Shown: one piece after another, positions 2,969 to 39,088 of the stretch
Layout: every line of letters begins with the position of its first letter
How positions within the stretch are numbered: position 1 is the first letter of the stretch
From: Candidatus Segetimicrobium genomatis
Lineage (GTDB): Bacteria > Sysuimicrobiota > Sysuimicrobiia > Sysuimicrobiales > Kaftiobacteriaceae
NCBI GenBank assembly: GCA_005882295.1
Contig: VBAI01000006.1
Coordinates: 1-51,011 of the forward strand
Length of the DNA: 51,011 bases
Reading direction: 5' to 3'
Program-made: the position numbers and the translations under genes
The notes under the pieces: model-generated
The model's input: the letters and a program-made list of their open reading frames with translations, nothing else
Database searches by the model: none
What the model was told of the DNA's origin: nothing

Positions 2969-3013
2969 GGGCGGCCGAGCCCGTCGTGATCGCGCCGGCA
3001 TCGACCACCCGGC

Positions 3014-16378: not shown

Positions 16379-17958
16379 GCGCCACGCTCCGGCGCCGTCT
16401 CGGGCGCACGCTCGCGAGGCGCGACCCGGCGGCGCCGCGACAGCCATCGCCGGATCGCCTCCTGCTCCTGCGGGGTGAGGACGCTGAGTGCCAGCGCGGC
16501 TGCGGCATACAGGACGGCGAACGTGCCGGCACCGATCCCCAGCACGGCCAGCGCAGTCACCCCGGGCGTGTGGCCCACGAGGATCTGCCGGACGAGCGCG
16601 GTGGCCAGCCCGGCCACCGCCGCCGCGACGCCCAGCCTCGCCACGCCGCGAAAGGCGGCCAGGTCGCTCCACGACATGCCCAGGATGCGGGCCACCTTGC
16701 CGGCCAGCAGCACGCGTTCCACGAGCGTCACCCCAACCACCACGGCGGCGGGGGCGACCAGGTCGAATCGCCGGACGGCGATCCACAGACCTGCCAGCAG
16801 CACGGTCACCAATCCTGTCCGCACCCGGACAAGGAACGGGAGGTGTTCCGGGCATGCGCGGAAGACCGCATCGCAAGCCGGGAACACGATGGTCAGCGGG
16901 ACCAGTGTCAGGTAGACGGCGAAGATCGGCCAGCTGGCCCGGTATTGCTCCGTAAACAGAACGGTGATGAACTCCCGACCGGTCACCAGCAGCAGGGCGT
17001 AGAGGGGGAATGCGACTGCGGCCAGGGTGCGCACCGATTGTGCCGCCAGGCGGACGATCTCCCGTGTCTCGTTTCGCTTCCGCAGTTCGCTCGCCCGGCG
17101 AATTGCCACATACCCGACCGACTCCACCAGGACGCCCATGATCGGAACCTGAAAACAGCCCACCGCGTACACGGCGTACACGGCCGCATCGTACCGGTGC
17201 GACACAAAGTAGTGGTGCACCCACCCCTGCAGCCACCAGATGATCCCGGCGTACGCCAGCGGCAGCGCGTAGGCGAGTTGTGCCCGCACCAAGCGCCACT
17301 CGGGCGCCCAGCGCGCTGCAGAAAATCGCGAGCGCACGTACCAGGCCATGAGGGCGCACTGCAGGAACCCGTGCACCACCGCCGCATACGCCAGCGCCCG
17401 CACGGACCCGAAGAGGCTCGCGGCGGTAATGAACAACCCGCTGCGCAGAACCTGGCTCACACCGATGAAGAGCGCGGCCAGATGCGCTTCCCCGTTGGCG
17501 ATGGCCACGAATTCCACGAACGATGATCCGACCAGCAGGAGCATCACCAGCCCGATCTCCGGCGCGTAGGCCGCCAGATCAGGGGAACTCAGCAGCGCCG
17601 CCGGCAGTGCAGGAAAGACGCTGACCAGCACACCTCCGATAGCGCCCATGAACATGTGCACCAGGAGGATATTCCTGACCACCTGGGCCTTTCGCTCCGG
17701 CTCTCGGGGGAAGAAGAAAAACGCGCTCAAGGCGAATCCCAGCGGGAGGATCACCACCGCGGTATCCACCAGGAGGAATAACTGCTTGTACACGCCGAAC
17801 TCGCGCACCGGCAGCCGGCGGACGAGCAGCAACGGCACGGCAAGGCCGAGGGCGAAGACGGTCGTCTTGGCGGCGATCAGCCACAGCGTGCTCTGCGCCG
17901 GTGAGATGTGTCCGCGGAGCGGCGGCCGCGACGCCATGTCGTCAGACAGAAAGGTCAT
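16375..17958 (-). CDS. MOP-superfamily polysaccharide flippase (Wzx-like)
   Basis: About 12 predicted hydrophobic helices. Typical Wzx-type N-terminus (LWLIAAKTTVFALGLAVPLLLVRRL). ATG at 17958 forms an ATGA overlap with the upstream stop. Confidence 0.7.
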   Translation of the reverse strand: MTFLSDDMASRPPLRGHISPAQSTLWLIAAKTTVFALGLAVPLLLVRRLPVREFGVYKQLFLLVDTAVVILPLGFALSAFFFFPREPERKAQVVRNILLVHMFMGAIGGVLVSVFPALPAALLSSPDLAAYAPEIGLVMLLLVGSSFVEFVAIANGEAHLAALFIGVSQVLRSGLFITAASLFGSVRALAYAAVVHGFLQCALMAWYVRSRFSAARWAPEWRLVRAQLAYALPLAYAGIIWWLQGWVHHYFVSHRYDAAVYAVYAVGCFQVPIMGVLVESVGYVAIRRASELRKRNETREIVRLAAQSVRTLAAVAFPLYALLLVTGREFITVLFTEQYRASWPIFAVYLTLVPLTIVFPACDAVFRACPEHLPFLVRVRTGLVTVLLAGLWIAVRRFDLVAPAAVVVGVTLVERVLLAGKVARILGMSWSDLAAFRGVARLGVAAAVAGLATALVRQILVGHTPGVTALAVLGIGAGTFAVLYAAAALALSVLTPQEQEAIRRWLSRRRRVAPRERAPETAPERGA

Positions 17959-18926
17959 CCCTTGCCCACGGCCGCCGAAAAGTACGGCGTGACCAGTTTT
18001 AATCCCTCTGCCAGAGACACGCGGGGCTGCCACCCGAGGAACCGGCTGGCCCTGCGGATGTCTGGGCGCCGGACCTTGGGATCATCCTCAGGCAATGGGC
18101 GGAACACGATCCGGCTCCTGCTGTTGGTGGTGCGGATGATCTCCTGGGCCAGTTGATGAATGGTGACTTCTTCAGGGTTCCCCAGATTCAGGATGTTGCC
18201 GTCCTGCCCGCCCTGGGAGGATCCGTCGAGGGTGAGAAACTTGAACAATCCGTCTACAAGATCGGAGACATAGCAGAACGACCTGGTCTGCGACCCGTCT
18301 CCGTAGACGGTGAGCGGTTCGCCGAGCAACGCCTGAGCCATCATGGTCGGCAGCGCTCGCCCATCCTCCAGTCGCATCCGGGGCCCGTAGGTGTTGAAGA
18401 TCCTGGCGATGCGGACCGGCACACGGTGCGCCCGATGGTAGGCCATGGTGATGGCCTCAGCGTAGCGTTTGGCTTCGTCGTAGACGCTCCTCGGGCCCAC
18501 GGGATTAACGTAGCCCCAGTATTCCTCCGACTGCGGGTTCTCCCGGGGGTCTCCGTAGACTTCGGAGGAGGACGCCAGCAAGATCACGGCCCCTTTCCGA
18601 TTGGCCAGTTCCAGGGCGTGATAGGTGCCAGCGGCCCCGACCTGCAGGGTGTGGATGGGATACTGCGCGTAATCCTTGGGGCTCGCCGGGCTGGCGAACT
18701 GCAGGACATAGTGCACCGGTCCATCGATCTCGATCGGCTGGGTCACATCGCCCTGGAGGAATGTGAACCGGGGATGATCCCGGAGGTGCTGGACATTCAC
18801 CACTCGTCCGGTCAACAGGCTGTCCAGGCACAGCACCTCATACCCTTCCGCCAGGAGGCGCTCGCACAGATGAGACCCCAGAAAGCCAGCGCCGCCGGTG
18901 ATCAGGACGCGATCCGCTGCGGTCAC
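17955..18926 (-). CDS. UDP-glucuronate decarboxylase (UDP-xylose synthase-type SDR)
   Basis: VLITGGAGFLGSHLCERL, SSSEVYGDP, YDEAKR catalytic motif, IARIFNTYGPRM. GTG at 18926 forms a GTGA overlap with the upstream stop. Confidence 0.8.
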   Translation of the reverse strand: MTAADRVLITGGAGFLGSHLCERLLAEGYEVLCLDSLLTGRVVNVQHLRDHPRFTFLQGDVTQPIEIDGPVHYVLQFASPASPKDYAQYPIHTLQVGAAGTYHALELANRKGAVILLASSSEVYGDPRENPQSEEYWGYVNPVGPRSVYDEAKRYAEAITMAYHRAHRVPVRIARIFNTYGPRMRLEDGRALPTMMAQALLGEPLTVYGDGSQTRSFCYVSDLVDGLFKFLTLDGSSQGGQDGNILNLGNPEEVTIHQLAQEIIRTTNSRSRIVFRPLPEDDPKVRRPDIRRASRFLGWQPRVSLAEGLKLVTPYFSAAVGKG

Positions 18927-20287: not shown

Positions 20288-21399
20288 CAGCACGCACCTC
20301 GCCTGTGCGGCCCGTTCGTCCTCTGGCGTGCCTGCGCAGCCGTCCCCTGGTAGACGGCGCTCCACTGGGATCGGACATGCGCCCAGGTGTACCCCTGAAC
20401 CTCCTCACGGGCTCGCCGCGCGATGGTGACGGCGAGTTCTCGATCGTCGAGCAGGCGGGTCACGGCGTCGGCCAACGCCGCGGGGTTTGCGGGGGGAACG
20501 ATCAGGCCGGTCTCGCCATCGCGCACCAGCGCGCCGAGATCGCCGGTGGCGGTGGAGATGACCGGCAGCCCCGCCGCAAAGGCTTCGAGCACCGACACCG
20601 GCTGATTGTCGATCAACGAAGAGTTCATAAAGATGTCGCCCTCCTGATACAGACCGGGCATGGCCTCAGGCTCGACCCGGCCCAAGAATCGGGCGCCGTC
20701 GATGCCCAGGGCCGCGGCGAGCCGGCGCAGCCGGCCCTCCTCGCTGCCGTATCCCGCCACCGTCAGGGTGGCCTCCGGGTGGCGCGCCCGCACCCGCGCG
20801 AATGCCCGCAGCGTGTACTCCACCCCGTAATGGGGTTCGAGGTTGCGGGTGGAGAGCAGCGCGGGGCGCAGGGGATGCCGTTCCCGGTAGACGAATCGCG
20901 CCGTGTCCACGATGTTGCGGATGACGCGCGTCCGGTAGCCGTGCCGGGCAAAGACATCCTGCAGGTATTCGGACGGCACCACGATCTCGTCTGCCAGGCG
21001 CAGCCAGGGATGCACCAGCAATCCCCACCGCGCGAGATGATCTGCGGCTTCTCCGCTGTGGTAGTGCAGGACGACGCGCGTCCCAAAACTGCGCGCCGCG
21101 AGCATCGCCGGAAGTGGCGAGAGCACGAACGACCAGTACGAAGCGGAGAAGATGTGCGCCACCTCCCGCCCCCGAAGCCGGAGCAGCGTGGGCACGTAGA
21201 GGGCTTCGTTGAGGGCCGTCCTCGCGTACCGCACTCCTCGAAGCCAGCGTAACCCGGGTGGACACGGCGGGTTGATCGGGATGAAGAGCACGTCGTAGCC
21301 GTCGCGCTGGAGGCCGTGCGCGAGCGCTCGGACCTGGACCGCGTGCCCGCCCAGAATCTCCATGCTCGGCGCGATGAGCGCCACCGTGGGGGTGCTCAT
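20287..21399 (-). CDS. Glycosyltransferase family 4
   Basis: QPVSVLEAFAAGLPVISTATGDLGALVRDGETGLIV GT-B C-terminal motif. ATGA overlap at 21396-21399. Confidence 0.75.
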   Translation of the reverse strand: MSTPTVALIAPSMEILGGHAVQVRALAHGLQRDGYDVLFIPINPPCPPGLRWLRGVRYARTALNEALYVPTLLRLRGREVAHIFSASYWSFVLSPLPAMLAARSFGTRVVLHYHSGEAADHLARWGLLVHPWLRLADEIVVPSEYLQDVFARHGYRTRVIRNIVDTARFVYRERHPLRPALLSTRNLEPHYGVEYTLRAFARVRARHPEATLTVAGYGSEEGRLRRLAAALGIDGARFLGRVEPEAMPGLYQEGDIFMNSSLIDNQPVSVLEAFAAGLPVISTATGDLGALVRDGETGLIVPPANPAALADAVTRLLDDRELAVTIARRAREEVQGYTWAHVRSQWSAVYQGTAAQARQRTNGPHRRGAC

Positions 21400-22466
21400 C
21401 CGAGTCCTCGGATGCGCGCTGTGGGTTGTCCGCGCATCTCCCCTCTCCTCTGCCGCCGGACTCTCAGGAGGTCCTTGAGCATCTCCCGCAATCCGGATGC
21501 CGCGACGACGAACTGGGCGAAGGTCATATGGTCGTTCACGCCGATCCGCCGGACCGCATACGGATCGGCCGCCGGGTCGTGCAGACCCTCGATGACGGTG
21601 ACGGCGCTGCGGTACCCGGCCCTGATCGCCGCCTCGACGGCGTCGGCGGAGAACTCCCCGTGAGGATAGCACAGCCACGTGACCGGGCCTCCCACCACAG
21701 ACTCCAACACACGCTTGGACTCCGTGAGCTCCGCCAGCAGCGCGTCCCGGCTCAGGTGAAGGAACGAGTCGTGGGAGCGGCCGTGGCTTCCCACGGAGAT
21801 TCCGTCTCGCGCCATCTCGCGCAACTCGTCCGCCGAGAGCGACCCGCAGATCGCCGGCGTCTGGTCATCCACGTCTAGGTCCACGGCCAGCCCGGCGAGC
21901 AGGGCCTCACGCCTGCTGGGCGGCAGCGTGAGGAGTCTGGGTGAGAGATCTGTGAGGGTGGTCTGCTTGTCCTGTGCCGTGGCCAATGGGAACTGCTGGA
22001 TCCCGTCGACGTCGATGCGCACAGACGGACGCTGCGTGGCCGCGATCATGGCGCGGAGGCGATCCCACCAGAAGGGGCGGCCGTGCACCAGGAAGTCGGT
22101 GACGACGAACACCGTCGCCGGCAGTCCGAGCCGCCGCAGGATGGGATAGGCGTGGCGGTAGAAGTTGGCGTATCCATCGTCGAAGGTAATGGCGGCCAGG
22201 GATCGTCGATGCCGGGATCCAGCCGGCAGATCGCGGATCTCATCCAGAGGGACGACCTCGTAGTGCGTTGCCATGTAGCGCATCTGCCGTTCGAAGAGGG
22301 CCAGACGGAGACGCAGGCCGTCGTAGTTGGCGACGGGATCCGGCCCGCTGGTATACACATCGTGATAGGCGAGGATCACAGCTTTTCGCCGGTTCAGCCA
22401 GGCGGCGGCCGAGGTGACCCCCGCCGCCACGAACAACCGGTACGCGAGTTCCTTGATGACACCCAT
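21396..22466 (-). CDS. Polysaccharide deacetylase (NodB homology, CE4)
   Basis: ITFDDGYANFYRHAYPILRRLGLPATVFVV and SHGRSHD motifs. N-terminal membrane anchor MGVIKELAYRLFVAAGVTSAAAWL. The start lies 5 nt after the upstream stop. Confidence 0.75.
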   Translation of the reverse strand: MGVIKELAYRLFVAAGVTSAAAWLNRRKAVILAYHDVYTSGPDPVANYDGLRLRLALFERQMRYMATHYEVVPLDEIRDLPAGSRHRRSLAAITFDDGYANFYRHAYPILRRLGLPATVFVVTDFLVHGRPFWWDRLRAMIAATQRPSVRIDVDGIQQFPLATAQDKQTTLTDLSPRLLTLPPSRREALLAGLAVDLDVDDQTPAICGSLSADELREMARDGISVGSHGRSHDSFLHLSRDALLAELTESKRVLESVVGGPVTWLCYPHGEFSADAVEAAIRAGYRSAVTVIEGLHDPAADPYAVRRIGVNDHMTFAQFVVAASGLREMLKDLLRVRRQRRGEMRGQPTARIRGLG

Positions 22467-22471
22467 CGCCG

Positions 22472-23554
22472 TCAGGACGAACCTCCGTCCTGGAAGCGCA
22501 TGTACCACTCGCTTTCCAGCCGGCTGAAGAACGCGTCGCCATCCTGAAACGCCTGGGTCACGTGCGGGTCCCGCGAGTGCACCAGCGTCCAGTTCCCCCG
22601 GTGGCGGAAGAAGCACCCGCGGGCCGAGTACGCGGCGATGAGCCGCGGGTCGATCCGGCCGACGAGCGCGAGCATCCCCTCGTGCCTTGCCTGGGCGAAG
22701 AGGTAATCGAGCACCTCGCCAATCTGGTCCTCTCGGGCGCCGACCTGCAGCACTTCCCCCACACCGCCCCGCGATCCGCAATACAGGTACCAGCCGACAA
22801 TCTCGCTCGAAGGACCGCGAACGAGGACCTTGTGCAGCCGTCCGGATCCCGGCTTCCGGGCGAGGAGCTCCAGCAGCAGCCGAGCCGTCTGGCCATCGTA
22901 GGCGGGACGGAGCGCGCGGGTCTGCGTGAACTCGTTGACGCACGCGGCGAGCGTCTCGCCATCCAGATTATCCCCGAGCATTGTCGGCGCCGACGTCCGC
23001 AGCGGGTTGCCCGGTAGTCGCGCCGCTGCAGCATCCACCAGGCGACTCAGCGCCGTCCAGGCGGGTGATCCCCGGCCGGAGCGCGCGGCCGCGAACTCGG
23101 CCGGGCGGAGGACCCGCACCCAGTACAGGCTATAGAGGAGCGCGGTCCTCGCGCCCAGCCCCTCGAAGAGTTTCCGCGAGACCTCCCCCGCCTCGTCCGC
23201 CACCGTCAGGTCCTGCCGGCCCGCCAGGAGGGTTTTGATCAGTTCGATCCCGGCCAGCGATGCGCGATAGGCCGGCTCGACGATGAAATGGGCGGTAATG
23301 ACCGCGCTGATCGGCCGGCCGTGCACGGTCATCCGGCGCGGCATGATCCCGAGGAACCCCACGGGCGCACCATTCCCGTCCTCGTACACCAGGGACGGCT
23401 GGTCGAGCACCCATGGGGGATCAAGAAACATCTCCTTGAAATAGGCGCGGTAGACGTCTCCATCTGTGGCCGGCGCGCCGGGGAGGAGGACCCGGCGGTG
23501 GAGGTCGATCACCTGCGGGATGTCGCCTTCCTGCAACGCCCTCACACGGCCCAT
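22472..23554 (-). CDS. Large GNAT-family acyltransferase (Eis-like two-domain type)
   Basis: N-terminal GNAT-like core (RALQEGDIPQVIDLHRRV...GFLGIMPRRMTVHGRPISAVITAHFIVEPAYRASLAGIELIK). 360 aa. Family assignment by eye only. Confidence 0.5.
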   Translation of the reverse strand: MGRVRALQEGDIPQVIDLHRRVLLPGAPATDGDVYRAYFKEMFLDPPWVLDQPSLVYEDGNGAPVGFLGIMPRRMTVHGRPISAVITAHFIVEPAYRASLAGIELIKTLLAGRQDLTVADEAGEVSRKLFEGLGARTALLYSLYWVRVLRPAEFAAARSGRGSPAWTALSRLVDAAAARLPGNPLRTSAPTMLGDNLDGETLAACVNEFTQTRALRPAYDGQTARLLLELLARKPGSGRLHKVLVRGPSSEIVGWYLYCGSRGGVGEVLQVGAREDQIGEVLDYLFAQARHEGMLALVGRIDPRLIAAYSARGCFFRHRGNWTLVHSRDPHVTQAFQDGDAFFSRLESEWYMRFQDGGSS

Positions 23555-23568
23555 GGCAGCCCGGCGAC

Positions 23569-24048
23569 CTAGCCCCCGTACTCCCAGGGAGATGCGGCGA
23601 TCGTGAGCGGCGAGACGACCTCACGGCACACGGCATCGGCGACCTCAAGGATGACCACGGCATGATCCCCACCCGTCTCGAAGATCTGCCGGACCGTACA
23701 CTCAACGTACGCGGGTGCGCCCGCGAGGACCGGCATGGTGGTCGTCCCTTCCACAAACGGCTCGTCGTTCAGGTGGCCGTCCATCACCCTGGTCGGGCGA
23801 AAGAACTTTGCGGCCAGCGGTTGCTGGGTGTCGCCCAGGACGTGGACCACGGCAGCCCGGCTCTCGGCGAGGCACTGGAAGAGGTTGCTGTCCCTGCGGA
23901 TCGCCGTCATGAGCAGGGGCGGCCTGAAGGACGCCTGCGACATCCACGTCACGGTGGCGGCGCCGTAGTGCGATCCGCGCCGCGACGTCACGACGTACAT
24001 GCCGTTGCTAAACATGCGCAGGGTGCGCTTACGGGCCTGGAGATCCAT
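23569..24048 (-). CDS. Flavin reductase (split-barrel, HpaC-like)
   Basis: MFSNGMYVVTSRRGSHYGAATVTWMSQASFRPPLLMTAI is typical of the flavin reductase-like domain. AGGAG 7 nt upstream of ATG 24048. Confidence 0.7.
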   Translation of the reverse strand: MDLQARKRTLRMFSNGMYVVTSRRGSHYGAATVTWMSQASFRPPLLMTAIRRDSNLFQCLAESRAAVVHVLGDTQQPLAAKFFRPTRVMDGHLNDEPFVEGTTTMPVLAGAPAYVECTVRQIFETGGDHAVVILEVADAVCREVVSPLTIAASPWEYGG

Positions 24049-24089
24049 TCCGCTGCTCCTTGTGATCGACGGGGGACCGGACGATCGGC

Positions 24090-24425
24090 TCAGTGATCGA
24101 TGACCAGCGGATTCGTCCGCGTGGAGATCGTTGGACCTGAGGGCGGCTCGGTGCCTCCGTGTCCCGGGTGGGGCTGTGCACCGTTCCGACTGTTGACGAA
24201 CTGGGCGATGCGGCGGATCGTCCTGAAGTTGTCGAGTTCCAGTTCCTCCAGGGGGACCGCAATCCCAAACTCCCGCTCCAGATGAAGCAAGAACTCCACG
24301 AACGCCAGGGAGTCGATGGCCCCCGTCTCAAACAGGTCGAGATCGGCTGAGGGAATTTCCAGATGGAGCGCCCGCGCCAGAATTTGGGCGACGCGCGCTT
24401 CCACCACCGCGGTCGCGTCAGGCAT
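24090..24425 (-). CDS. Acyl/peptidyl carrier protein
   Basis: Phosphopantetheine attachment motif LFETGAIDSLAFVEF. ATG at 24425 overlaps the upstream GNAT stop by 8 nt. Carries an unusual Pro/Gly-rich C-terminal tail of about 30 aa. Confidence 0.75.
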   Translation of the reverse strand: MPDATAVVEARVAQILARALHLEIPSADLDLFETGAIDSLAFVEFLLHLEREFGIAVPLEELELDNFRTIRRIAQFVNSRNGAQPHPGHGGTEPPSGPTISTRTNPLVIDH

Positions 24426-24963
24426 CGCTGCCCCCGCGGTGCTCTGGGGCCAGAATGTCAAACCACAGGCGGTCACGCGGCTGGCCGTCGATCTCGTGGC
24501 ACTGGCGCCGTCGTCCGATCAATTGAAACTTCAGACGCTCGGCGATCCGGCGCGCGGGATGGCCCTCGACAATCCACGCGTTCACGGCGTGCAGCTGCAG
24601 ATCCCGGAACGCCAGGGTCAGCATGGCCGACACCGCCTGGGTCCCATAGCCCCGCGCCCGGAAGGACTTATCGCCCACCACGACCCAGATGCGCGCCGTC
24701 TTGAACTGCGGGTTAATCTCGCTGAGCCCGACCACGCCGACCGGCGGGCCGCCCCCCCTCACGGCGAACGCGCGCAGCAGATGGGCCTGGTGCTGCGTCA
24801 TGATCTGCAGGCGGTCGGCCGTGAGATCCTGCTGGCCGTCGCCGAAGTCGAGCCACTGAGAGTTCTCCTTCTGTGCTAACCACCCCGCCACGAGCGCGAC
24901 GAGCGCAGGGCTGTCGACGGGGATAAGCGTCACCCCCCCAGACTGTTCCAGTAATCGTGTCAT
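24418..24963 (-). CDS. GNAT N-acyltransferase (RimJ/RimL-like), paralogue a
   Basis: GVVGLSEINPQFKTARIWVVVGDKSFRARGYGTQAVSAML...RDRLWFDILAPEH. GAGGA 5 nt upstream of ATG 24963 (the ORF is open to GTG 24993). Roughly half the positions match the 27263-27808 product by eye. Confidence 0.7.
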   Translation of the reverse strand: MTRLLEQSGGVTLIPVDSPALVALVAGWLAQKENSQWLDFGDGQQDLTADRLQIMTQHQAHLLRAFAVRGGGPPVGVVGLSEINPQFKTARIWVVVGDKSFRARGYGTQAVSAMLTLAFRDLQLHAVNAWIVEGHPARRIAERLKFQLIGRRRQCHEIDGQPRDRLWFDILAPEHRGGSDA

Positions 24964-25005
24964 CGCCGTCCTCACGGGACTCATCGGCGGCACATCCCCT
25001 CGCGC

Positions 25006-26232
25006 CTACGCCACGGGCACCGGTCGCCGCCAGGTCCCGGCAGATGCCGCCCTCAACAACGGAGGACTGGGAAGAAATCGGGGACCATGACGCAGCGCCC
25101 AGGTCTGCAACGTCTCGACAATCGCATCCAGACCAGCTTGCTGAGCGTATGCCAGCGGTCCACCCTGCTGCGGCCATCCCAGCCCGAGCGCAGCGCCACG
25201 ATCCGCATCGTCAGCCGAGGCCACAACCTCCTCGGCGAGACAGTGGCCGATCTCATTGATCATCTGCCAGATCGGACGGGTGGAGAGTTCCGCCGGGCTG
25301 GGGGAATGTGCCCCGTTCCGGCCGATCAGGGAGTAGATCCGGGGGTCCACCGCTCCTCCGTCGCGGTCCCGATAGAACCCCTTCGCACCGTCACGGCGAC
25401 TGCCGTGATGACCCGCGTCGAGGACCGGCCAGAGACGCCGGAGATACGCCACGCGCTCCCCCAGATGTGGCGACACGGCATCGTACACGCCTCGGAAGAT
25501 CTCGATTCCGACCGCATCCATCAACCGGAATGGGCCCATCGCCCAGCCAAAGGCTTCCATCGCGTCATCCACGGCGTCGATGGCGGCTCCCTCGGTCACC
25601 AGCGCGATCGCCTCATTGAGATAGACCAGGAGGATCCTGGTGGTGAAGAACCCTGGACAGTCCCCCACGATGAGCGGCACCTTGCCCTGCCAGTCGACCA
25701 TCGCCTGCGTGCGGTGCAGGGTCAATGTGCTGGTCGCTTCGCCGGGGATGATCTCGACGAGCCGGTAGCGGTACGCAGGCCAGAAGTAATGCGCGCCGAT
25801 GACGCGGTCCGGCCAGGCCGCGGCCGCCGCAATCCTGGAGATGGGGATGGCCGAGGTATTGCTGGCAATGATGCATGCCGGGGAGACGCCTGCCTCCACG
25901 GCCGCCAGCACGGCATGTTTCGTCTGGAGATTCTCGACGACGGATTCGATCACGCACTCCACTCCGGCGAGATCGGCATAGGACGCCGTGAGATGCATGC
26001 GGCTCAGCCGGTCACGCGCCTCGAGCGCGGTGATGCGCCCGCGGCGGACATCGGACTCATACGCGCGCTCCAGCATCCCTGCCGCGCGCTGGAGACCGCC
26101 ACGGCGCGGCGCCACCACGACAACCGTGGCACCCAGATCGGCGAGCACCCGGGCGATCCCGGCTCCCACCGTCCCGGCACCGACCAGGCCACACCGACGC
26201 ACGTCCGACCCGTTCCGTGCGGCACCGCTCAC
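25006..26232 (-). CDS. 3-hydroxyacyl-CoA dehydrogenase family protein
   Basis: NAD-binding GLVGAGTVGAGIARVLA, NTSAIPI, and a C-terminal 3HCDH helical domain. GTG at 26232 forms a GTGA overlap with the KAS III stop. Confidence 0.7.
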   Translation of the reverse strand: MSGAARNGSDVRRCGLVGAGTVGAGIARVLADLGATVVVVAPRRGGLQRAAGMLERAYESDVRRGRITALEARDRLSRMHLTASYADLAGVECVIESVVENLQTKHAVLAAVEAGVSPACIIASNTSAIPISRIAAAAAWPDRVIGAHYFWPAYRYRLVEIIPGEATSTLTLHRTQAMVDWQGKVPLIVGDCPGFFTTRILLVYLNEAIALVTEGAAIDAVDDAMEAFGWAMGPFRLMDAVGIEIFRGVYDAVSPHLGERVAYLRRLWPVLDAGHHGSRRDGAKGFYRDRDGGAVDPRIYSLIGRNGAHSPSPAELSTRPIWQMINEIGHCLAEEVVASADDADRGAALGLGWPQQGGPLAYAQQAGLDAIVETLQTWALRHGPRFLPSPPLLRAASAGTWRRPVPVA

Positions 26233-27266
26233 GGGGTCCCGTCACCTCCGTTGTCGCACCACCGGTATGTCACCGCCCCCCACGCCATCCCCGCCCCGAC
26301 GGCGGGCATGACCAGCCAGTCCCCGTTTTGGAATTTCCCTTCTTGCCTGGCCTGATCCAACGCCACGGGAATCGAGGCCGCGGAGATATTCCCGGTTCGT
26401 GGATATGTGATCACGAACTTCTCCCAGGGGAGTTCGAGGCGCTGGGCAACCTCACGCAGGATGGTGCACGAGGCCTGGTGGGGGATGACCCATGCGATCT
26501 CGTCCAGGCTCAGGCCCGCCCGCGCCACCGCCTCGAGCATGCAGTAGGCAAAGCGGTCAACCGCCCACCGCTGAATCTCCGGGAACTTCAGGCGCCAGTA
26601 CGCCAGGCCCTGATCAAGCACGGCCTGGCAGAGCGGCGTCTTGCCGCCGCCGCCCGGGATCCAGACGTAATGGCCGAGGTCCCCGTCCGATCCCGTGATG
26701 AATGACCGCACCCCGTAGCCGGAATTTCCATTCCGCCGCTGCAGCAGCACGGCTCCTGCGCCGTCGCCAAAAATCGTCAGCGGCATGAACTTCTCCGGAT
26801 CACACAGCCTGGTCAGGGTGTCCGCCCCCACCACCAGAGCGGTTTCGTAGTCCTGGGTGTCGAGCAGGCTGCTGGCGACCAGCAGGCAGTCTACGAATCC
26901 TGTGCAGGCGGAATCGAGCTGGATGACCTTGGCCTTGGAGCCCAGATTCGCCTGCATCATCAACGCCGCCTGGGGAAGGCGGTAATCATTGGTGATGGTG
27001 GCCATGACAATCACGTCCAGGTCTTGGGGGTCAAGACCGCCGTCGTGAAGGGCCCGTCGGGCCGCGACGGTCCCCAGATCGGAGGAGCACTCGCCGGGCC
27101 GTGCCCAGTGACGCGCGATGGCGCCGTGGTGGGTCCGGGACCACTCATCCAGGCTCGCCCCTCCGGCCCTGGCCCGGTCGTAATCCAACTCCATCGCCTC
27201 GAGCTCATCATTGGTGACGATGCGCTCGGGTAGGTAGGCACCGATGCCGGTGATGACTTTGTTCAT
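26229..27266 (-). CDS. 3-oxoacyl-ACP synthase III (FabH-like condensing enzyme)
   Basis: MNKVITGIGAYLPERIVTNDELE. Active-site Cys context LDSACTGFV. C-terminal IPHQAS and GNISAASIP motifs. ATGA overlap at 27263-27266. Confidence 0.8.
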   Translation of the reverse strand: MNKVITGIGAYLPERIVTNDELEAMELDYDRARAGGASLDEWSRTHHGAIARHWARPGECSSDLGTVAARRALHDGGLDPQDLDVIVMATITNDYRLPQAALMMQANLGSKAKVIQLDSACTGFVDCLLVASSLLDTQDYETALVVGADTLTRLCDPEKFMPLTIFGDGAGAVLLQRRNGNSGYGVRSFITGSDGDLGHYVWIPGGGGKTPLCQAVLDQGLAYWRLKFPEIQRWAVDRFAYCMLEAVARAGLSLDEIAWVIPHQASCTILREVAQRLELPWEKFVITYPRTGNISAASIPVALDQARQEGKFQNGDWLVMPAVGAGMAWGAVTYRWCDNGGDGTP

Positions 27267-27808
27267 GGCCCCAGATCCCTGCGTGCACCGGCGGCGCCGT
27301 CTTCGTCCAGCTCCTGATGCTCGGAGGCCAGAATATCGAACCAGAGCCTGTCGTAGGTGCGTCCGTCGAGGTAGTGGCACTGCCGCTGCCGCCCGATGAG
27401 GTGCAGTTGTAGCCGATGTCCAATTTCAACCGACGGGTTGTGGACCACGGCCCAACTGCTGATGGCCCGCAGCCCCAGCTCGTGAAACCCCAAGCTGAGC
27501 ATCTTGGAAACGGCGCGGGTCGTGTACCGGCGGCGGGCGTAGGATTTGTCCCCCAGCACCGCCCAGGCCGTGGCTGTTTTGAAGTGGCGATCCACGTGGC
27601 TGAGGCCGACCACACCGATCAGGGTGTCATCGTCGTCTGCCGTGAAGACCCGCAGGACGTTCGCCTGCCGTTGCGCCATGATCTTGACGAGCGCCGGGGT
27701 AAAGTGCGGTAGGCCGCCGAAGTCCAGCCACTTGGAGTTCTCGGGATCCGCGAGCCAGTCCGCGACGAGCGCAATCAGCTTCGGCGAGTCAAGCGGGATG
27801 AGTCTCAT
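27263..27808 (-). CDS. GNAT N-acyltransferase (RimJ/RimL-like), paralogue b
   Basis: MRLIPLDSPKLIALVADWL...GVVGLSHVDRHFKTATAWAVLGDKSYARRRYTTRAVSKML...YDRLWFDILASEH. The start overlaps the adenylation gene stop by 20 nt. Confidence 0.7.
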   Translation of the reverse strand: MRLIPLDSPKLIALVADWLADPENSKWLDFGGLPHFTPALVKIMAQRQANVLRVFTADDDDTLIGVVGLSHVDRHFKTATAWAVLGDKSYARRRYTTRAVSKMLSLGFHELGLRAISSWAVVHNPSVEIGHRLQLHLIGRQRQCHYLDGRTYDRLWFDILASEHQELDEDGAAGARRDLGP

Positions 27809-29423
27809 GGCGTGCGGCCTCCGGCTGTCGGAACATTTCCGCCACGCGGCGGCGGTCGATCTTCCCGTTGGGATTGGTCGGCAACGTCTCTACCGACAAC
27901 CAACTGGCAGGGAGCATGTATGCGGGCAGGAGGCGGCTCAGTTCCCCGCGCAGCTCGGTCGGCGTCAGCGACCGACCGGGCAGCGGGACGTAGGCGCAGT
28001 AGATGCTGGCCCCCTCAAACCCCTCCGTCGGAAGTGCGATCACCGCGACCTCTTGCAGGATGCCGAGGGCATGCAGGGCGGCTTCGATCTCGCCGAGCTC
28101 GATTCGGTAACCGCGGCTCTTGATCTGTGCGTCCGCGCGTCCCAGGAAGTACACGAGGCCGTCCGTCCCCACCCTGGCCAGATCACCGGTCCTGTAGATC
28201 CGCTCCTCCGGGTGGGAACTGCGCGGATTGGTGAGAAATGCCGCGCGGGTCTTCTCCGGATCGCCCCAGTAGCCTGGGCTTAGGCCAACACCGCCGATGA
28301 AGAGCTCTCCGACCTCCCCTGCCGGAACCGGCCGGAGATCCTCGTCGAGCACATAGAGCACCTCGCCGTCGCATGGCTGGCCGATCGGGACCGGCGCGGC
28401 GTCCTCCGGGCAAGCCGGCACCGTGTAGTAGCTGCTGGCGACCGTTGTCTCTGTGGGGCCATAGAGGTTGGTAAAACGCACGCCCGGCAGCCGCCGCATC
28501 CAGTACATCAGCGCGGGGGTGGGCAGGACCTCGCCGCACCACATCACCCGTCGAAGGGCCCGAAAATCATGGACCCGCACCACATCGAACTTGGCCATGT
28601 AGTTCAGCGCCGACGGAACAGAAAACCATTGGGTCAACTCCGACCCTCGGATGAACTCGGCGAGTTTATTCGGCAGCACGTTCAACTCCGGGGGAACCAG
28701 GTGCAGCTCGGCACCGGCCGCAAACGTCCCGAAGATATCCAGCATGGAAAGATCGAAGTGCAGGGGGGAGTGGCCCGAGATCCGGTCCTGAGGGCGCATC
28801 TCAAAGTACGGCACGGCCCACTCGATGAAGGCGATCATGTTGCTGTGCGTAATCACCACGCCCTTCGGGACGCCGGTGGATCCTGAGGTGTAGAAGATGT
28901 GCGCCGGATCACGCCGCTGCGTGGATGCCGCCACGGGCGACCCCGCGTATCTGTCGAGGTCGCGCGCCGAGAAGTCTGCCCACACCGGCTCCGCCTGGGT
29001 CCCGTCGGACTGGACCCAGCCGACCCGGGTCGACTCACGCCACCCTTCGCCGGCCATCAGGGTCTCCAGGAGGCCGCCCACCGGGCCGGCGGCCAGCATC
29101 CAGCGCGGTTCGCAGGAGGCGATGATCTTGGCCAGCCGCGGCGCCGGGCCCGCCGGATCGAGTGGCACGTAGATTCCGCCAGCCTTGTAGATGGCGACGA
29201 TTGCCATGATCGCGATCGGGCTCTTGGGCATGAGCAGGCACACGCGGTCGCCGGGTTCGCATCCGGCGTCGAGCAGGCAGCGGGCCAGGCGGTTCGAAAG
29301 ATCTTCAAGTTCCCCGTAGGTCAACCGGTCCTCGCCCAGCACCACCGCTCCGGCGAAGGGCCGCTGCCGGGCCTGTCGGGTGACCCACTGGTCCAGGCGC
29401 TCCACGGAGGCTGCCCCGCTCAT
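27789..29423 (-). CDS. Stand-alone adenylation enzyme (ANL superfamily, NRPS A-domain/DltA-like)
   Basis: Core motifs YTSGSTGVPKGV, NLYGPTETT, YRTGDLAR, GRADAQIKSRGYRIELGEIE, PNGKIDRR. ATGA overlap at 29420-29423. Confidence 0.8.
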   Translation of the reverse strand: MSGAASVERLDQWVTRQARQRPFAGAVVLGEDRLTYGELEDLSNRLARCLLDAGCEPGDRVCLLMPKSPIAIMAIVAIYKAGGIYVPLDPAGPAPRLAKIIASCEPRWMLAAGPVGGLLETLMAGEGWRESTRVGWVQSDGTQAEPVWADFSARDLDRYAGSPVAASTQRRDPAHIFYTSGSTGVPKGVVITHSNMIAFIEWAVPYFEMRPQDRISGHSPLHFDLSMLDIFGTFAAGAELHLVPPELNVLPNKLAEFIRGSELTQWFSVPSALNYMAKFDVVRVHDFRALRRVMWCGEVLPTPALMYWMRRLPGVRFTNLYGPTETTVASSYYTVPACPEDAAPVPIGQPCDGEVLYVLDEDLRPVPAGEVGELFIGGVGLSPGYWGDPEKTRAAFLTNPRSSHPEERIYRTGDLARVGTDGLVYFLGRADAQIKSRGYRIELGEIEAALHALGILQEVAVIALPTEGFEGASIYCAYVPLPGRSLTPTELRGELSRLLPAYMLPASWLSVETLPTNPNGKIDRRRVAEMFRQPEAARHETHPA

Positions 29424-30430
29424 CGCGCCACCGCCTGGACGGCCCGCTCGAACACCGCCCGGGTATGGAGGAGGTCGTCCGCGCTGCGGGGGACGTCGAG
29501 GATGAAGACGCGGTGCCCGAGGCCGACATACCGGCCGACTTCTGCGGCCACCCGGTCGTAGCTCCCCACCAGATACGGGCAGTTCGTCTGGTAGTTCTGG
29601 AAGGGAACCATCCAGTACGGACTGGAGGGTCGCTCCTCCGTGGTGCCAGAGAGCTGGTGATGCCACACCGAATCCGACACCTTTGTCGCCAGTTGCCGGG
29701 TCAGCTGGCCCCGGCGGTCTTCCGGGAAGCGCGCCTGAGCAATCTCCCACGCCTCTCGCTCGTGCTCCCGCGCGATGATGCCGACCCTGACCCCAAACGG
29801 AATCCCCGGCGGCGGGGCGGCCTCGTCCTCAGCGGGTTGGGGATATTTGACAGCGGTCGCTCCGATCGCCCGCGCGGCGGCGAGGCCCGCCTCCGACGAT
29901 CCGGAGATGAAAATGCCTGGAAACAGCTCGACGGGTAGCGCCGGAGTGAGCTTCAACTTGTCGACAGTGTAAAACTCGCCGGCGTAACTCACGGGTTCCC
30001 CGGTGAGGAGTCGCTTGATGATCGTCGTGTACTCGGTGAGGCGATCGTACCGCTTGTCGTGCGGCGTGGGGTCACACAGGGCGAGCAGATCGTTCTTGAA
30101 GCCTCCGGCCACCATGTTGAGGTAGACCCGCCGTCCGTGCAAGTAGGCCAGCGAGGCCACCTGCTTGGCCACGGCGTATGGGTGCATATACACGGGCTGC
30201 ACCGCGACCAGCGGGCAGAGGTGGGTGGTGTGTTGAATGATCAGCTGCGCCACAAGCCAGGGGTCGACCTGACTGTTGTCCGAATACACGAGGATGCCGG
30301 TGCAACCGGCCTCGTCGCTCCAGCGCGCGACCTGGACGACATCCGCGCCATAGCGGTCGCGTACGGTGAGGCTACTGGCGGGACAGGTCGAAAAGAGTTC
30401 GACCGCGACATCACGGGCTCCGCGCTCCAT
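29420..30430 (-). CDS. Luciferase-like (LLM class) flavin-dependent monooxygenase
   Basis: VELFSTCP...GILVYSDNSQVDPWLVAQ...YLNMVAGGF...HDKRYDRLTEY is typical of the LLM fold. ATG at 30430; an alternative GTG at 30439 gives a GTGA overlap with the GT4 stop. The 220 upstream codons are rejected. Confidence 0.7.
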   Translation of the reverse strand: MERGARDVAVELFSTCPASSLTVRDRYGADVVQVARWSDEAGCTGILVYSDNSQVDPWLVAQLIIQHTTHLCPLVAVQPVYMHPYAVAKQVASLAYLHGRRVYLNMVAGGFKNDLLALCDPTPHDKRYDRLTEYTTIIKRLLTGEPVSYAGEFYTVDKLKLTPALPVELFPGIFISGSSEAGLAAARAIGATAVKYPQPAEDEAAPPPGIPFGVRVGIIAREHEREAWEIAQARFPEDRRGQLTRQLATKVSDSVWHHQLSGTTEERPSSPYWMVPFQNYQTNCPYLVGSYDRVAAEVGRYVGLGHRVFILDVPRSADDLLHTRAVFERAVQAVAR

Positions 30431-30435
30431 CTCAC

Positions 30436-31710
30436 TCACCCCATCACACCCCATCCACCGGGCGTCGTGCTCAGAAGGCCCCGCCGCCCCGCTCCGTCCA
30501 GCAGGGAGGCGTAGAGGGCGCCAGTCTCGGAAGCATAGCGCTGATCGGTGAAGAACTGCTCCACCCGCATCCTGCCGGCTGCTCCAAACCTCACCGCCAC
30601 CTCCTGGGTGTGCAGCAACCTGGTGATCGCAGCCGCCAGCGCCGGCGCGTCCCCCGGCGGCACGATCAGCCCAGTCATTCCGTCCTGAACAGCCTCCGCG
30701 TTGCCGCCCACGTCTGTGGCCACCACGGGGACGCCCGCGGCCATCGCCTCCAGCAGGGCGTTGGAAAGTCCCTCGCCTCCAACGGAAGGCAGCACGAACA
30801 CGGCAAGATCTGAGAGAATTTCCGGCACATCGACACGGAACCCCGTGAACACCACGCGATCGTTGAGGCCCAGACGCGCGGCGTACTGTTGCAGCTCCGC
30901 TCGGTAGGCAACGTCGTTCACGATGGCGCCATCTCTCTTCTGAAGCAAGTGGTCGCCGACGACCAGAAAGCGTGCCTGGGGGAGTCTCGCGGCCACCATG
31001 GCTGCGGCCTCGAGAAAGTGCTCCACGCCCTTCAGCCGGACCAGCCGGCAGACGACACCGACCAACGGCGCCTGAGGCGGTAGGCCCCACTCCTGCCGAA
31101 ACCGGCTCAACCCGGACCGCCGCGGGAACTTCGACAGATCAATACCCTGCCGGATCACCACGATCTTCCGCGGATCGAACCCATCTCCGATCAGGTACTG
31201 CCGCACCGCCTCGGCGTTGACCGTGATGCGGTGGGCCAGGCGGCAGACCAGCCGATGTGCCCGCTGTTGCAGCGGGGTAAGATAGCCGCCCGTATCCTGG
31301 ATCGAGGCCACGACGACAGGAGCACCCGCCAGCCGGGCTGCCGGAATGGCAAACGCGTTGGCGTAAAAGTTGTACGTGTGCACGATCTGGATCCGCTCCC
31401 GCCTCAGGTGCCGGGCGAAGCGGAGCCGTTCGCGCCAGGCGCGCACGCCGTGGAGCCTGGCGACCTCGTATTCGGCGATCGGAATTCCTCGATCCGCGAC
31501 TTCGCCGAGCAGTTCGCCCCATCGGCGCAGACACCCGAATTGCACGTCGAAGCGGACCGGATCGAGCGCCCTCGCCAGACTCACGGTCAGCCGCTCCGTC
31601 CCCCCGAGGGCAAAGTTCGGCAGGAATTGCAACACACGAATCCGGTCCGTCCGGACCCCGTCCCGCCCAGGCGCGTGGGTCTCGAGGCCTGCGGGCACGG
31701 TGCCGATCAT
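30436..31710 (-). CDS. Glycosyltransferase family 4
   Basis: IRVLQFLPNFALGGTERL and EGLSNALLEAMAAGVPVVATDVGGNAEAVQDGMTGLIV. ATGA overlap at 31707-31710. Confidence 0.8.
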   Translation of the reverse strand: MIGTVPAGLETHAPGRDGVRTDRIRVLQFLPNFALGGTERLTVSLARALDPVRFDVQFGCLRRWGELLGEVADRGIPIAEYEVARLHGVRAWRERLRFARHLRRERIQIVHTYNFYANAFAIPAARLAGAPVVVASIQDTGGYLTPLQQRAHRLVCRLAHRITVNAEAVRQYLIGDGFDPRKIVVIRQGIDLSKFPRRSGLSRFRQEWGLPPQAPLVGVVCRLVRLKGVEHFLEAAAMVAARLPQARFLVVGDHLLQKRDGAIVNDVAYRAELQQYAARLGLNDRVVFTGFRVDVPEILSDLAVFVLPSVGGEGLSNALLEAMAAGVPVVATDVGGNAEAVQDGMTGLIVPPGDAPALAAAITRLLHTQEVAVRFGAAGRMRVEQFFTDQRYASETGALYASLLDGAGRRGLLSTTPGGWGVMG

Positions 31711-38461: not shown

Positions 38462-39088
38462 TCAGGTGGGGACCACATCGGTGCAGTCCACTTCTACGGC
38501 AACGCTTTGCTGCAGCAGCGCCACGGAGAGCACGAGCAGGCCCCGGCGCGGGTCCTGCCGCACCAGGATGCCCTGCACATCAGCCAGCGGCCCGCGGATG
38601 ATGCGGACACGCTGTCCTTCTTGCAAATAGGCGTGCGGGAGGACGGGAAGACGGGCTCCGACCACAGTTTGCACCGCCTCAATTTCCTGATCCGGTACGG
38701 CAGACAGGCGGTCCCAGCGCTCACCCAGAATGGCGACCAGCCCCCGGGCCTTTCGCACCTCGATGTAGTGAGCCTTGTCCATGGCAGACCGCAGGAACAA
38801 ATATCCGGAAAACATCGGCACCCGGATGCGCCGCCGCGCTCCTCCGCGCCGCGACCACACCTCCACGGTGGGCAGGAACAACTCAAACCCCCGCGCGATG
38901 AGCTGGTCGTAGACCAGTCGCTCGCAGTGACTACGAGTCCATAACGCATACCATCGCGAGCCCGCGACAGGCGTGGCCTCGGCGAGATCATAGCGTCCGG
39001 GATGTGATGGTGTGATAGAAGTCGCAACTGGCAAGGCTTCGCCCCCTTCGGTTCGCGCCGTATCGGGCTCAAACCGAGTCGTCACCAT
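38462..39088 (-). CDS. NusG/RfaH-family transcription antiterminator paralogue (NGN + KOW)
   Basis: NGN-like WYALWTRSHCERLVYDQLIARGFELFLPTVEVWSRR...PMFSGYLFLR. KOW-like LQEGQRVRIIRGPLADVQGILV. Start uncertain: ATG 39088, or the ORF is open to GTG 39151. Confidence 0.75.
   Translation of the reverse strand: MVTTRFEPDTARTEGGEALPVATSITPSHPGRYDLAEATPVAGSRWYALWTRSHCERLVYDQLIARGFELFLPTVEVWSRRGGARRRIRVPMFSGYLFLRSAMDKAHYIEVRKARGLVAILGERWDRLSAVPDQEIEAVQTVVGARLPVLPHAYLQEGQRVRIIRGPLADVQGILVRQDPRRGLLVLSVALLQQSVAVEVDCTDVVPT

Follow-up and report, generated by a model that had tools for sequence, protein, structure and literature searches.

This study concerns a cassette of nine successive genes in Candidatus Segetimicrobium genomatis, which lies on the minus strand of contig VBAI01000006.1, within a stretch of 51,011 nucleotides that was analysed as a whole and is called the window below. 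The cassette is flanked by genes for a GT4 glycosyltransferase (30436-31710) and a polysaccharide deacetylase (21396-22508), and its composition supports the proposal, made in an initial annotation from the sequence alone, of a tailoring cassette that depends on a carrier protein and lies within a glycan operon. Raw lists of open reading frames (ORFs) are noisy in this window because its G+C content is 64-69%; the genes were resolved by analysis of third-position GC (GC3) in the three frames combined with ORF calls. This analysis delineated one long minus-strand gene array, from about 38881 down to 1388, and reproduced the nine genes in the order proposed earlier. The interval originally assigned to the cassette, 23569-30430, holds for eight of them, and the ninth lies just outside it. 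Comparison with Pfam and NCBIfam upheld the earlier family calls for all nine. In the order of transcription, the cassette and its immediate neighbors are:

30436-31710, minus strand, directly upstream (context): GT4 glycosyltransferase (Glyco_trans_1_4, E 4e-39)
29420-30430, minus strand: luciferase-like monooxygenase, LLM (Pfam Bac_luciferase)
27789-29423, minus strand: stand-alone adenylation (A-) domain enzyme of the nonribosomal peptide synthetase (NRPS) type (AMP-binding, TIGR01733)
27263-27808, minus strand: small Gcn5-related N-acetyltransferase (GNAT) "b", RimL/RimJ-type (Acetyltransf_3, Acetyltransf_1)
26229-27266, minus strand: FabH-like beta-ketoacyl synthase III, KAS III (ACP_syn_III, ACP_syn_III_C)
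25006-26232, minus strand: L-3-hydroxyacyl-thioester dehydrogenase, HADH, 408 aa (3HCDH_N, 3HCDH)
24418-24993, minus strand: small GNAT "a", RimL/RimJ-type (Acetyltransf_3)
24090-24425, minus strand: acyl/aminoacyl carrier protein, ACP, with a DSL phosphopantetheine site (PP-binding)
23569-24048, minus strand: NAD(P)H:flavin reductase (Flavin_Reduct)
22472-23554, minus strand: large (tandem) GNAT, 360 aa (weak Acetyltransf_9; AlphaFold2 fold)
21396-22508, minus strand (context): polysaccharide de-N-acetylase (Polysacc_deac_1, E 1e-26; PgaB-like N-terminal part)

Five junctions of the cassette are stop/start overlaps, namely LLM/A-domain (4 nt), A-domain/GNATb (20 nt), GNATb/KAS III (4 nt), KAS III/HADH (4 nt) and GNATa/ACP (8 nt), and the others are gaps of 12-41 nt. 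A pattern scan found no promoter-like or terminator-like signals within the cassette beyond shuffled-sequence expectation, and an Rfam scan of the window gave no matches. Family scans of the window genes place the cassette inside an exopolysaccharide (EPS) operon of about 37 kb and of the Wzx/Wzy type. Upstream of the cassette this operon encodes, in order, a NusG paralogue, a chain-length determinant (Wzz), a tyrosine autokinase, a priming phosphoglycosyl transferase, a Wzy-like polymerase and the GT4 enzyme, and downstream the deacetylase, another GT4 enzyme, a UDP-sugar dehydrogenase, an epimerase, Wzx, a heparinase II/III-like lyase, a GT2 enzyme, a methyltransferase and an AsnB-like amidotransferase. 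As noted in the initial annotation, none of the scanned window genes encodes a thioesterase, phosphopantetheinyl transferase (PPTase), dehydratase or enoyl reductase.

Protein families of the cassette

The A-domain enzyme is a member of the NRPS adenylation family (AMP-binding, E 1e-83; TIGR01733, 398.5 bits against a cutoff of 317.4), and its best match in PDB is the second A-domain of LgrA, which activates glycine. It scores far below the cutoffs of the DltA models (276.9 against 476 for NF003417; 264.7 against 559.85 for TIGR01734) and of the XrtA-associated ligase TIGR03098 (250.2 against 592.35). The 10 specificity positions, the extraction of which had been suggested in the initial annotation, were mapped by hand from the A4-A5 motifs and read DLLFMCLVAK, the consensus of the orthologues being DLFFLCLIAK in 27 of 36. 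Asp235 and Lys517 of the code are kept, which indicates an alpha-amino acid as the substrate, and the bulky hydrophobic lining of the pocket (Phe239, Phe278, Leu299, Cys301, Leu322) points to a side chain of very small size. The ACP, a 111-aa ORF, matches PP-binding at E 6e-13 and remains below the cutoffs of the DltC models (45 bits against 68 for NF003464; 37.2 against 52.35 for TIGR01688). Its C-terminal tail of about 30 residues is rich in Pro and Gly and is missing from the 85-103-aa orthologues found in four related loci (L081, L083, L097 and L100; the numbering of the loci is ours).

The LLM, which is 344 aa long if translated from the alternative start at 30454 that public gene callers have chosen, matches Bac_luciferase at E 7e-33. 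It reaches no cutoff in NCBIfam (release of June 2026), where its best matches are of the SsuD type, at 103.6-105.7 bits against cutoffs of 510-518; among PDB entries, it matches SsuD at E 2e-22. In an alignment with the Escherichia coli SsuD (1M41), Cys54 is replaced by Gln and His228 by Gly, the Arg297 loop is not conserved, and Arg226 alone is kept, these four being active-site residues of SsuD. The public (JGI) name of the LLM homologues, alkanesulfonate monooxygenase, is unlikely to be correct because three of these residues are not conserved, and assignment to the SsuD sulfonate monooxygenases was rejected for the same reason and for the far sub-cutoff scores. The LLM, whose orthologues are 64-81% identical across phyla, represents a distinct SsuD-related subfamily. 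The flavin reductase (Flavin_Reduct, E 7e-27; sub-cutoff matches to HpaC, FerA and RutF-type models) is likely the partner of the LLM.

The two small GNATs are paralogous (51% identical) and belong to a family with 368 homologues, nearly all metagenomic. GNATa matches Acetyltransf_3 at E 1e-11 and shows weak, far sub-cutoff NCBIfam matches to RimL, PseH and SpeG. A profile search with GNATb retrieved the structures of YdaF/RimL, SpeG, AAC(6') and MccE, which act as acetyltransferases on amines, among them the aminoacyl alpha-amine. No NCBIfam family in the same release matches GNATb or the large GNAT. Residues ~88-95 of GNATb and its three nearest homologues read RRRYTT/RRRFTI in place of the xRGYAT of the family; the conserved Gly of the pyrophosphate-binding loop is replaced by Arg, a substitution that may reflect a donor other than acyl-CoA.

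The large GNAT has a single Pfam match, a weak and sub-threshold one to Acetyltransf_9, and 99 homologues, mostly annotated as "hypothetical protein". Its AlphaFold2 model (pLDDT 93.7) most resembles N-myristoyltransferases (NMTs) among PDB folds, at E ~4e-14, TM ~0.56 and 11-13% identity. Because the resemblance is one of fold only, with no NMT match in Pfam, membership in the NMT family was rejected. The same holds for FemAB/Acetyltransf_6, given the NMT-like fold and the coexistence of separate PF13480 proteins with homologues of the large GNAT in L081 and L097. On the basis of this model, the protein is best described as a tandem GNAT of a family of its own with a predicted NMT-like fold.

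KAS III exceeds the cutoff of NF006829 (268.4 bits against 249) but not that of TIGR00747 (247.5 against 292.1), and its nearest PDB entries are true FabH enzymes. It keeps the Cys112/His244/Asn274 triad and Trp32, and Arg151 is replaced by Phe or Cys and Arg249 by Thr, Asn or Gly in the window protein and 10 orthologues. In FabH, Arg151 clamps the CoA primer, and Arg249 docks AcpP. The KAS III proteins of the cassette (in the window, L001, L007, L014, L027, L060, L081, L088, L089, L091 and L092) also have a 9-residue insertion after FabH position ~26 and a replacement of Phe87. HADH (3HCDH_N, E 1e-47) aligns with residues 301-702 of FadJ at 309 bits, has the FadJ alpha subunit as its best PDB match and is of the L-specific FadB/FadJ/Hbd type.

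Modular conservation in related loci

About 100 related loci from at least 7 phyla were compared, all of them in metagenome-assembled genomes (MAGs) or metagenome contigs. Among these, 80 loci came from a scan of a genome collection, all in MAGs and many cut by contig ends; they derive from Gemmatimonadota, Acidobacteriota, Rokubacteria, Nitrospirota, Burkholderiales/Betaproteobacteria, Steroidobacteraceae, Chloroflexi and others. A tblastn search of all window proteins against the 80 loci found the ACP in 53, the A-domain in 40, the LLM in 37, the flavin reductase in 33, the large GNAT in 30, and KAS III and HADH in 5 each. Among the 36 loci with both an LLM and an A-domain gene, 32 have the two side by side. 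L003, which is the nearest relative overall, has the order LLM-A-domain-GNAT-ACP-reductase-large GNAT, with no KAS III or HADH, and its ACP and reductase are 81% and 79% identical, respectively, to those of the window.

Smaller sets occur as well: GT4-LLM-A-domain-ACP-large GNAT in L097 and LLM-ligase-109-aa ORF-GT4-methyltransferase-large GNAT in L099, both without a small GNAT, and deacetylase-ACP-ligase-short-chain dehydrogenase/reductase (SDR)-large GNAT in L084. The large GNAT thus accompanies ligase and ACP also in sets with no small GNAT or no LLM. In Betaproteobacteria the set is split: GNAT and reductase form one group, and large GNAT-ACP-A-domain-LLM forms another on the opposite strand, at a distance of about 2-9 kb that often takes it to the edge of the fetched flank or past it. 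An apparent absence of LLM and A-domain from these bacteria was rejected, since this block, or its first genes, is found at that distance wherever the flanks extend far enough; two loci, L011 and L022, have no such block within 10 kb.

KAS III and HADH form a separate, rarer module. The nine close relatives of KAS III recovered in the metagenome scan (72-76% identical) all lie within this cassette. HADH follows KAS III in the relatives except L090 and L091, and the position of the pair varies: after the GNAT (L001, L100), after the ACP (L027, L060, L088), after the reductase (L081) or, in the window, between two GNATs. In L090 (6741-8145) and L091 (4332-7507), KAS III comes after the reductase, and a gene of the SDR/epimerase family and then the large GNAT come directly behind it, with no HADH; keto-reduction may there be performed by another enzyme or skipped. 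A small GNAT is present in every KAS III-containing locus seen. GNATb clusters with the GNATs adjoining KAS III in L001, L007 and L014, and GNATa with the core-type GNATs (order A-domain-GNAT-ACP) of L004, L021, L002 and L012; as a marker of KAS III/HADH presence the GNAT subtype was rejected, since KAS III-containing loci fall in both clades.

The cassette therefore consists of nested modules: a core of LLM, A-domain, ACP and a GNAT-fold transferase, a frequent small GNAT and reductase, and, rarely, KAS III together with an enzyme of the reductase type. The window holds the fullest version, plus a second small GNAT. Consequently, the single linear route through all nine genes that had been proposed in the initial annotation is unsupported in that form, with KAS III and HADH in only 5 of the 80 genome loci and at varying positions, and with minimal sets (L097, L099) that lack the small GNAT. 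The linkage to glycan genes, on the other hand, extends to the relatives, which stay in polysaccharide loci: 38 of the 48 loci of at least 12 kb carry at least two homologues of the glycan genes of the window. L100, a representative of the Gemmatimonadota loci without such homologues, has other genes for GT4, a polysaccharide lyase and a low-molecular-weight phosphotyrosine phosphatase (LMW-PTP). Deacetylase genes are found near the cassette in L003, L012, L083, L084 and L097, and DegT-type aminotransferases or deacetylases accompany it in other loci.

Several loci carry additional parts. L100 has an ACPS-type PPTase gene (17729-18103) by the cassette, along with the phosphatase gene. In four loci of Gemmatimonadota (L059, L068, L075 and L078, at about 9.5-10.8 kb), two ACP genes surround the small GNAT (A-domain-ACP-GNAT-ACP). 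Rokubacteria-type loci (L027, 13127-19809; L060, 13173-19627; L092/L093, 10287-16842) encode, besides the A-domain, a distantly related AMP-binding ligase with 27-29% identity to it, and in L060, L092 and L093 the large GNAT is present once more, downstream of KAS III-HADH, which suggests a second ligase/transferase pair in these loci.

A candidate pathway, its precedents and its alternatives

From the presence, order, families, folds and co-inheritance of these parts, we infer a modular carrier-protein-dependent system for the aminoacyl tailoring of exopolysaccharide, an explanation that we favor tentatively and that falls somewhat short of an even chance. The A-domain would adenylate a small neutral alpha-amino acid, consistent with its glycine- or alanine-like pocket, and load it onto the ACP. 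The LLM, using FMNH2 from the reductase, would oxidize the tethered aminoacyl group, most likely by hydroxylation next to the thioester, and the RimL/MccE-like small GNAT or GNATs would acylate the alpha-amine. In this window, KAS III and HADH would add an optional 3-hydroxyacyl (C4-type) unit. We lean slightly towards this unit being an N-cap, resulting in a group of the N-(3-hydroxybutanoyl)-aminoacyl type; lengthening of the aminoacyl chain by one step has nearly the same probability. Finally, the NMT-like tandem GNAT would off-load the finished acyl group from the ACP to a sugar amine exposed by the adjacent de-N-acetylase, the likely source of the acceptor amine; elsewhere, a DegT aminotransferase may provide it. 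Such off-loading would explain why no thioesterase is needed, and the minimal sets of L097 and L084 suggest that the tandem GNAT partners with the ligase and the ACP.

The products that this pathway would yield have counterparts in known glycans. The 3- or 4-amino-6-deoxyhexoses of O-antigens bear N-acetyl-alanyl, N-acetylglycyl and N-(3-hydroxybutyryl)-alanyl groups (PMC3210612, PMC7685785). E. coli O123 and Salmonella O58 make N-(3-hydroxybutanoyl)-D-alanyl-Qui4N, for which the review names no genes, and no genetic assignment of N-acyl-aminoacyl O-antigen substituents was found in the literature examined. Nor was a characterized cassette of the same composition found, in line with the initial annotation, in a literature search that left most subscription papers outside its reach.

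The closest working analogues are the assembly of the AHBA side chain of butirosin and re-acylation of the NodB/NodF type. The likeness to butirosin, Dlt/Alm and NodB/NodF/NodA would lie in a carrier-borne acyl or aminoacyl group that is delivered to a glycoconjugate; the cassette does not qualify as a member of any of these systems. In the butirosin pathway, BtrI is the ACP, BtrV is the flavin reductase of BtrO, and BtrH is the transferase. A stand-alone ACP, an LLM and a flavin reductase are all present and adjacent in the cassette, as in the butirosin-type families, the likeness being one of family only. Butirosin assembly uses ACP-tethered amino acids (PMC11350588), and BtrO hydroxylates the ACP-borne side chain (PMC2922099); the features shared with the cassette, as proposed, would be the tethered amino acid, its on-carrier hydroxylation by LLM and flavin reductase, N-acyl transfer to an amino sugar and the lack of a thioesterase (PMC2922099, PMC11350588). 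The two differ in the loading enzyme, which is the ATP-grasp ligase BtrJ in butirosin and an NRPS-type (ANL) A-domain here; in the pyridoxal phosphate (PLP)-dependent decarboxylase BtrK, the gamma-glutamyl protecting and deprotecting enzymes and BtrG, which the cassette lacks; in the transferase, BtrH as opposed to a GNAT-fold protein; and in the target, an aminoglycoside as opposed to a polysaccharide.

Nod factor synthesis likewise involves de-N-acetylation of a GlcNAc-type sugar followed by re-acylation from a dedicated acyl-ACP with a dedicated ketosynthase. The window has both a NodB-like deacetylase (Polysacc_deac_1) and a dedicated ACP (PP-binding), with no match to the NodA family and with a ketosynthase of the FabH type, not a NodE-type KAS I/II. 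The cassette differs further in a donor that would start from an amino acid, in a GNAT-fold transferase in place of NodA and in the Wzx/Wzy EPS as the polymer. A precedent for the oxidation step is provided by MtaG, in which an LLM-type monooxygenase (MOx) domain alpha-hydroxylates carrier-bound glycine (PMC11411415). MtaG/MelG (C-A-MOX-A-T-TE) share with the cassette the coupling of such an oxygenase, acting on a carrier-bound residue, to a glycine-type A-domain (PMC11411415), whereas their oxygenase is an inserted domain and the chain is released as a terminal amide; the cassette proteins are separate, with no condensation or thioesterase domain.

The EPS loci associated with XrtA/PEP-CTERM also contain a ligase and ACP pair, and the best matches of several flanking genes of the window (AsnB-like, tyrosine kinase, chain-length determinant, Wzy-like, GT4) are XrtA-associated families, for example TIGR03088 for the GT4 gene at 30436-31710 and the amidotransferase TIGR03108 (550 bits against a cutoff of 817) for the AsnB-like gene. 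All these matches are below cutoff, and the window lacks the PLP decarboxylase and the associated hydrolases. Membership of the ligase and ACP in the XrtA-associated set was rejected on the score of the A-domain with TIGR03098 and on the lack of any exosortase match in the window.

A number of points weigh against the aminoacyl tailoring pathway as drawn. The assignment of the amino acid depends on a hand-derived 10-residue code, which is about equally near to known Gly, Cys, Ala and Ser codes and is thus ambiguous. The known N-acetyl-aminoacyl groups require no oxygenase, so that precedent leaves the role of the LLM, the most conserved gene, unexplained. The identity of the off-loading GNAT is uncertain: the Gemmatimonadota loci have no tandem GNAT within 10 kb, and the small GNAT is missing from L097 and L099. 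The window encodes no sugar aminotransferase, and the origin of the acceptor amine from the deacetylase is our deduction. With the loss of Arg151 and Arg249 in KAS III, a primer bound to the ACP of the cassette, as in the linear route considered next, fits at least as well as acetyl-CoA. Finally, all the relatives are known from MAGs or metagenome contigs.

A strictly linear route would have the aminoacyl-ACP, probably N-protected by a small GNAT, prime KAS III; one malonyl extension would yield a gamma-amino-beta-ketoacyl thioester, which HADH would reduce and the LLM hydroxylate before a GNAT transfers the gamma-amino-beta-hydroxyacyl group to the glycan. As an account of the whole system we consider it unlikely, and as a reading of the optional module it is one of two that are roughly equal, Claisen extension of the aminoacyl unit being possible in this window. 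The confinement of close KAS III relatives to the cassette fits this route, as does the placement of KAS III directly behind the ACP or the reductase in loci such as L027 and L081, and the replacement of Arg151 and Arg249 in all KAS III proteins of the cassette suggests a dedicated carrier-bound substrate. The KAS III-locus GNATs do not form one clade, so that no change of donor specificity is required. Protective-group chemistry in butirosin biosynthesis was reportedly described by Li et al. in 2005. The presence of a small GNAT in every KAS III locus seen would match a similar need to mask the gamma-amine (compare PMC11350588). However, KAS III and HADH are absent from most loci that share the conserved A-domain code, and Claisen extension is therefore an option, not the core logic of the system. 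The linear route also leaves the second small GNAT unexplained and has to accommodate the loci with KAS III and no HADH (L090, L091). To our knowledge, no gamma-amino-beta-hydroxyacyl decoration of glycans has been described, which counts against this route, whereas the N-(3-hydroxybutyryl)-alanyl group is documented on glycans (PMC3210612).

Less probable still is a Dlt/Alm-like system, in which the aminoacyl-ACP would give its amino acid to polymer hydroxyls (as an ester), to a lipid anchor or to a protein, with the GNATs only modifying the aminoacyl group. The AlmEFG and DltABCD systems do transfer carrier-borne glycine or D-alanine to lipid A or teichoic acids, and share with the cassette a stand-alone A-domain and a small carrier protein that deliver an amino acid to a surface glycopolymer or glycolipid. 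The best equivalog-type matches of the A-domain and the ACP are DltA and DltC, albeit below cutoff, and the lack of a sugar aminotransferase among the scanned genes would also fit. Yet the cassette adds an LLM, a reductase, GNATs and KAS III/HADH; no acyltransferase of the MBOAT (DltB), DltD or AlmG type was found in the scanned window genes; three GNAT-fold N-acyltransferases and a de-N-acetylase are adjacent; and DegT-type aminotransferases or deacetylases lie by the cassette elsewhere. A standard Dlt system, with which the initial annotation drew a partial analogy, is rejected on the sub-cutoff scores and the lack of DltB and DltD.

It is very unlikely that the cassette makes a separate small molecule, such as an N-acyl amino acid, a lipoamino acid or a signaling compound, and hitch-hikes in EPS operons. 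Enzymes of the A-domain, ACP, KAS III, dehydrogenase and GNAT types also build N-acyl amino acids and molecules of the ornithine-lipid type, and the ACP weakly matches the OlsHI ACP model. Against this, the cassette is enclosed by Wzy/GT4 genes on one side and deacetylase/Wzx genes on the other, has stop and start codons that overlap, is found in polysaccharide loci of many phyla (the 38 of 48 loci cited above, with other GT4, lyase and LMW-PTP genes in L100) and has no export or regulatory gene of its own. That the LLM and the reductase are an ordinary SsuD/SsuE-type sulfur-scavenging pair, unrelated to the other genes, is suggested by the best family and PDB matches and by the JGI name, and can be dismissed in view of the score (105 bits against a cutoff of 510), the changes at Cys54, His228 and the Arg297 loop, the overlap of the LLM stop with the A-domain start, the adjacency of the two genes in 32 of 36 loci and the lack of ssuABC transport genes.

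Wider operon and biological significance

Other genes of the window merit attention. The NusG paralogue (38462-38881, minus strand) heads the ~37-kb operon, with a promoter-like site at 39016-38987; its top matches, all below cutoff, are the antiterminators LoaP, UpxY and RfaH, and NusG-like genes also lead the loci L003, L081 and L083. Upstream of the operon, a divergent pair (39537-41977, plus strand) encodes an ATP-grasp protein of the ATPgrasp_Ter type and a protein similar to class-B flavin monooxygenases (Pyr_redox_3 / Lys-Orn N-oxygenase-like). ATPgrasp_Ter genes also adjoin the homologue of the large GNAT in L098 and occur within the EPS locus L083, and the pair may be part of the same decoration machinery. 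The AsnB-like amidotransferase and the heparinase II/III-like lyase, encoded at 10336-12255 and 14210-16378 (minus strand) within the biosynthetic operon, both recur in related loci. The distal end of the window (1-6148) encodes large secreted-type proteins: a Big_7/fn3 repeat protein, which is encoded on the plus strand and truncated where the window begins; a beta-helix protein; and a protein of 1044 aa with DUF7948, an SBBP beta-propeller and CBM6. A Big_7/CBM6/lyase protein of similar kind adjoins the large GNAT in L098. Two operon genes, at 8780-10243 and 36412-38322 (minus strand), have no usable family; one encodes a 487-aa protein with no Pfam or NCBIfam match, and the other a 636-aa protein with weak matches to a Vgb-lyase-like beta-propeller and post-COAP-1.

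The cassette is uncharacterized and unusually widespread among uncultured soil bacteria: its core gene set is highly conserved and occurs commonly in polysaccharide loci from abundant lineages of soil and groundwater, most of them uncultured, namely Acidobacteriota, Gemmatimonadota, Rokubacteria, Nitrospirota, Binatia, Burkholderiales and Steroidobacteraceae. In its most far-reaching form, the proposal would be of an unrecognized, phylum-spanning decoration in which a small amino acid is loaded on a dedicated carrier, oxidized by the LLM, in some cases given a 3-hydroxyacyl unit as cap or extension, and placed on de-N-acetylated sugars by a carrier-fed NMT-like tandem GNAT, giving an oxidized (acyl)aminoacyl substituent new to glycan chemistry; we regard this as possible and somewhat more doubtful than the general scheme of aminoacyl tailoring. 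The cassette would also point to specific genes for the N-acyl-aminoacyl substituents with which O-antigen chemistry has long been familiar. If the aminoacyl tailoring model is true, it would define a new family of acyl-ACP-dependent tandem-GNAT transferases and a new carrier-protein-directed LLM oxygenase, and would reveal a new route by which amino-acid-derived groups are attached to exopolysaccharides, altering their charge, adhesion, aggregation and recognition by phages or enzymes.

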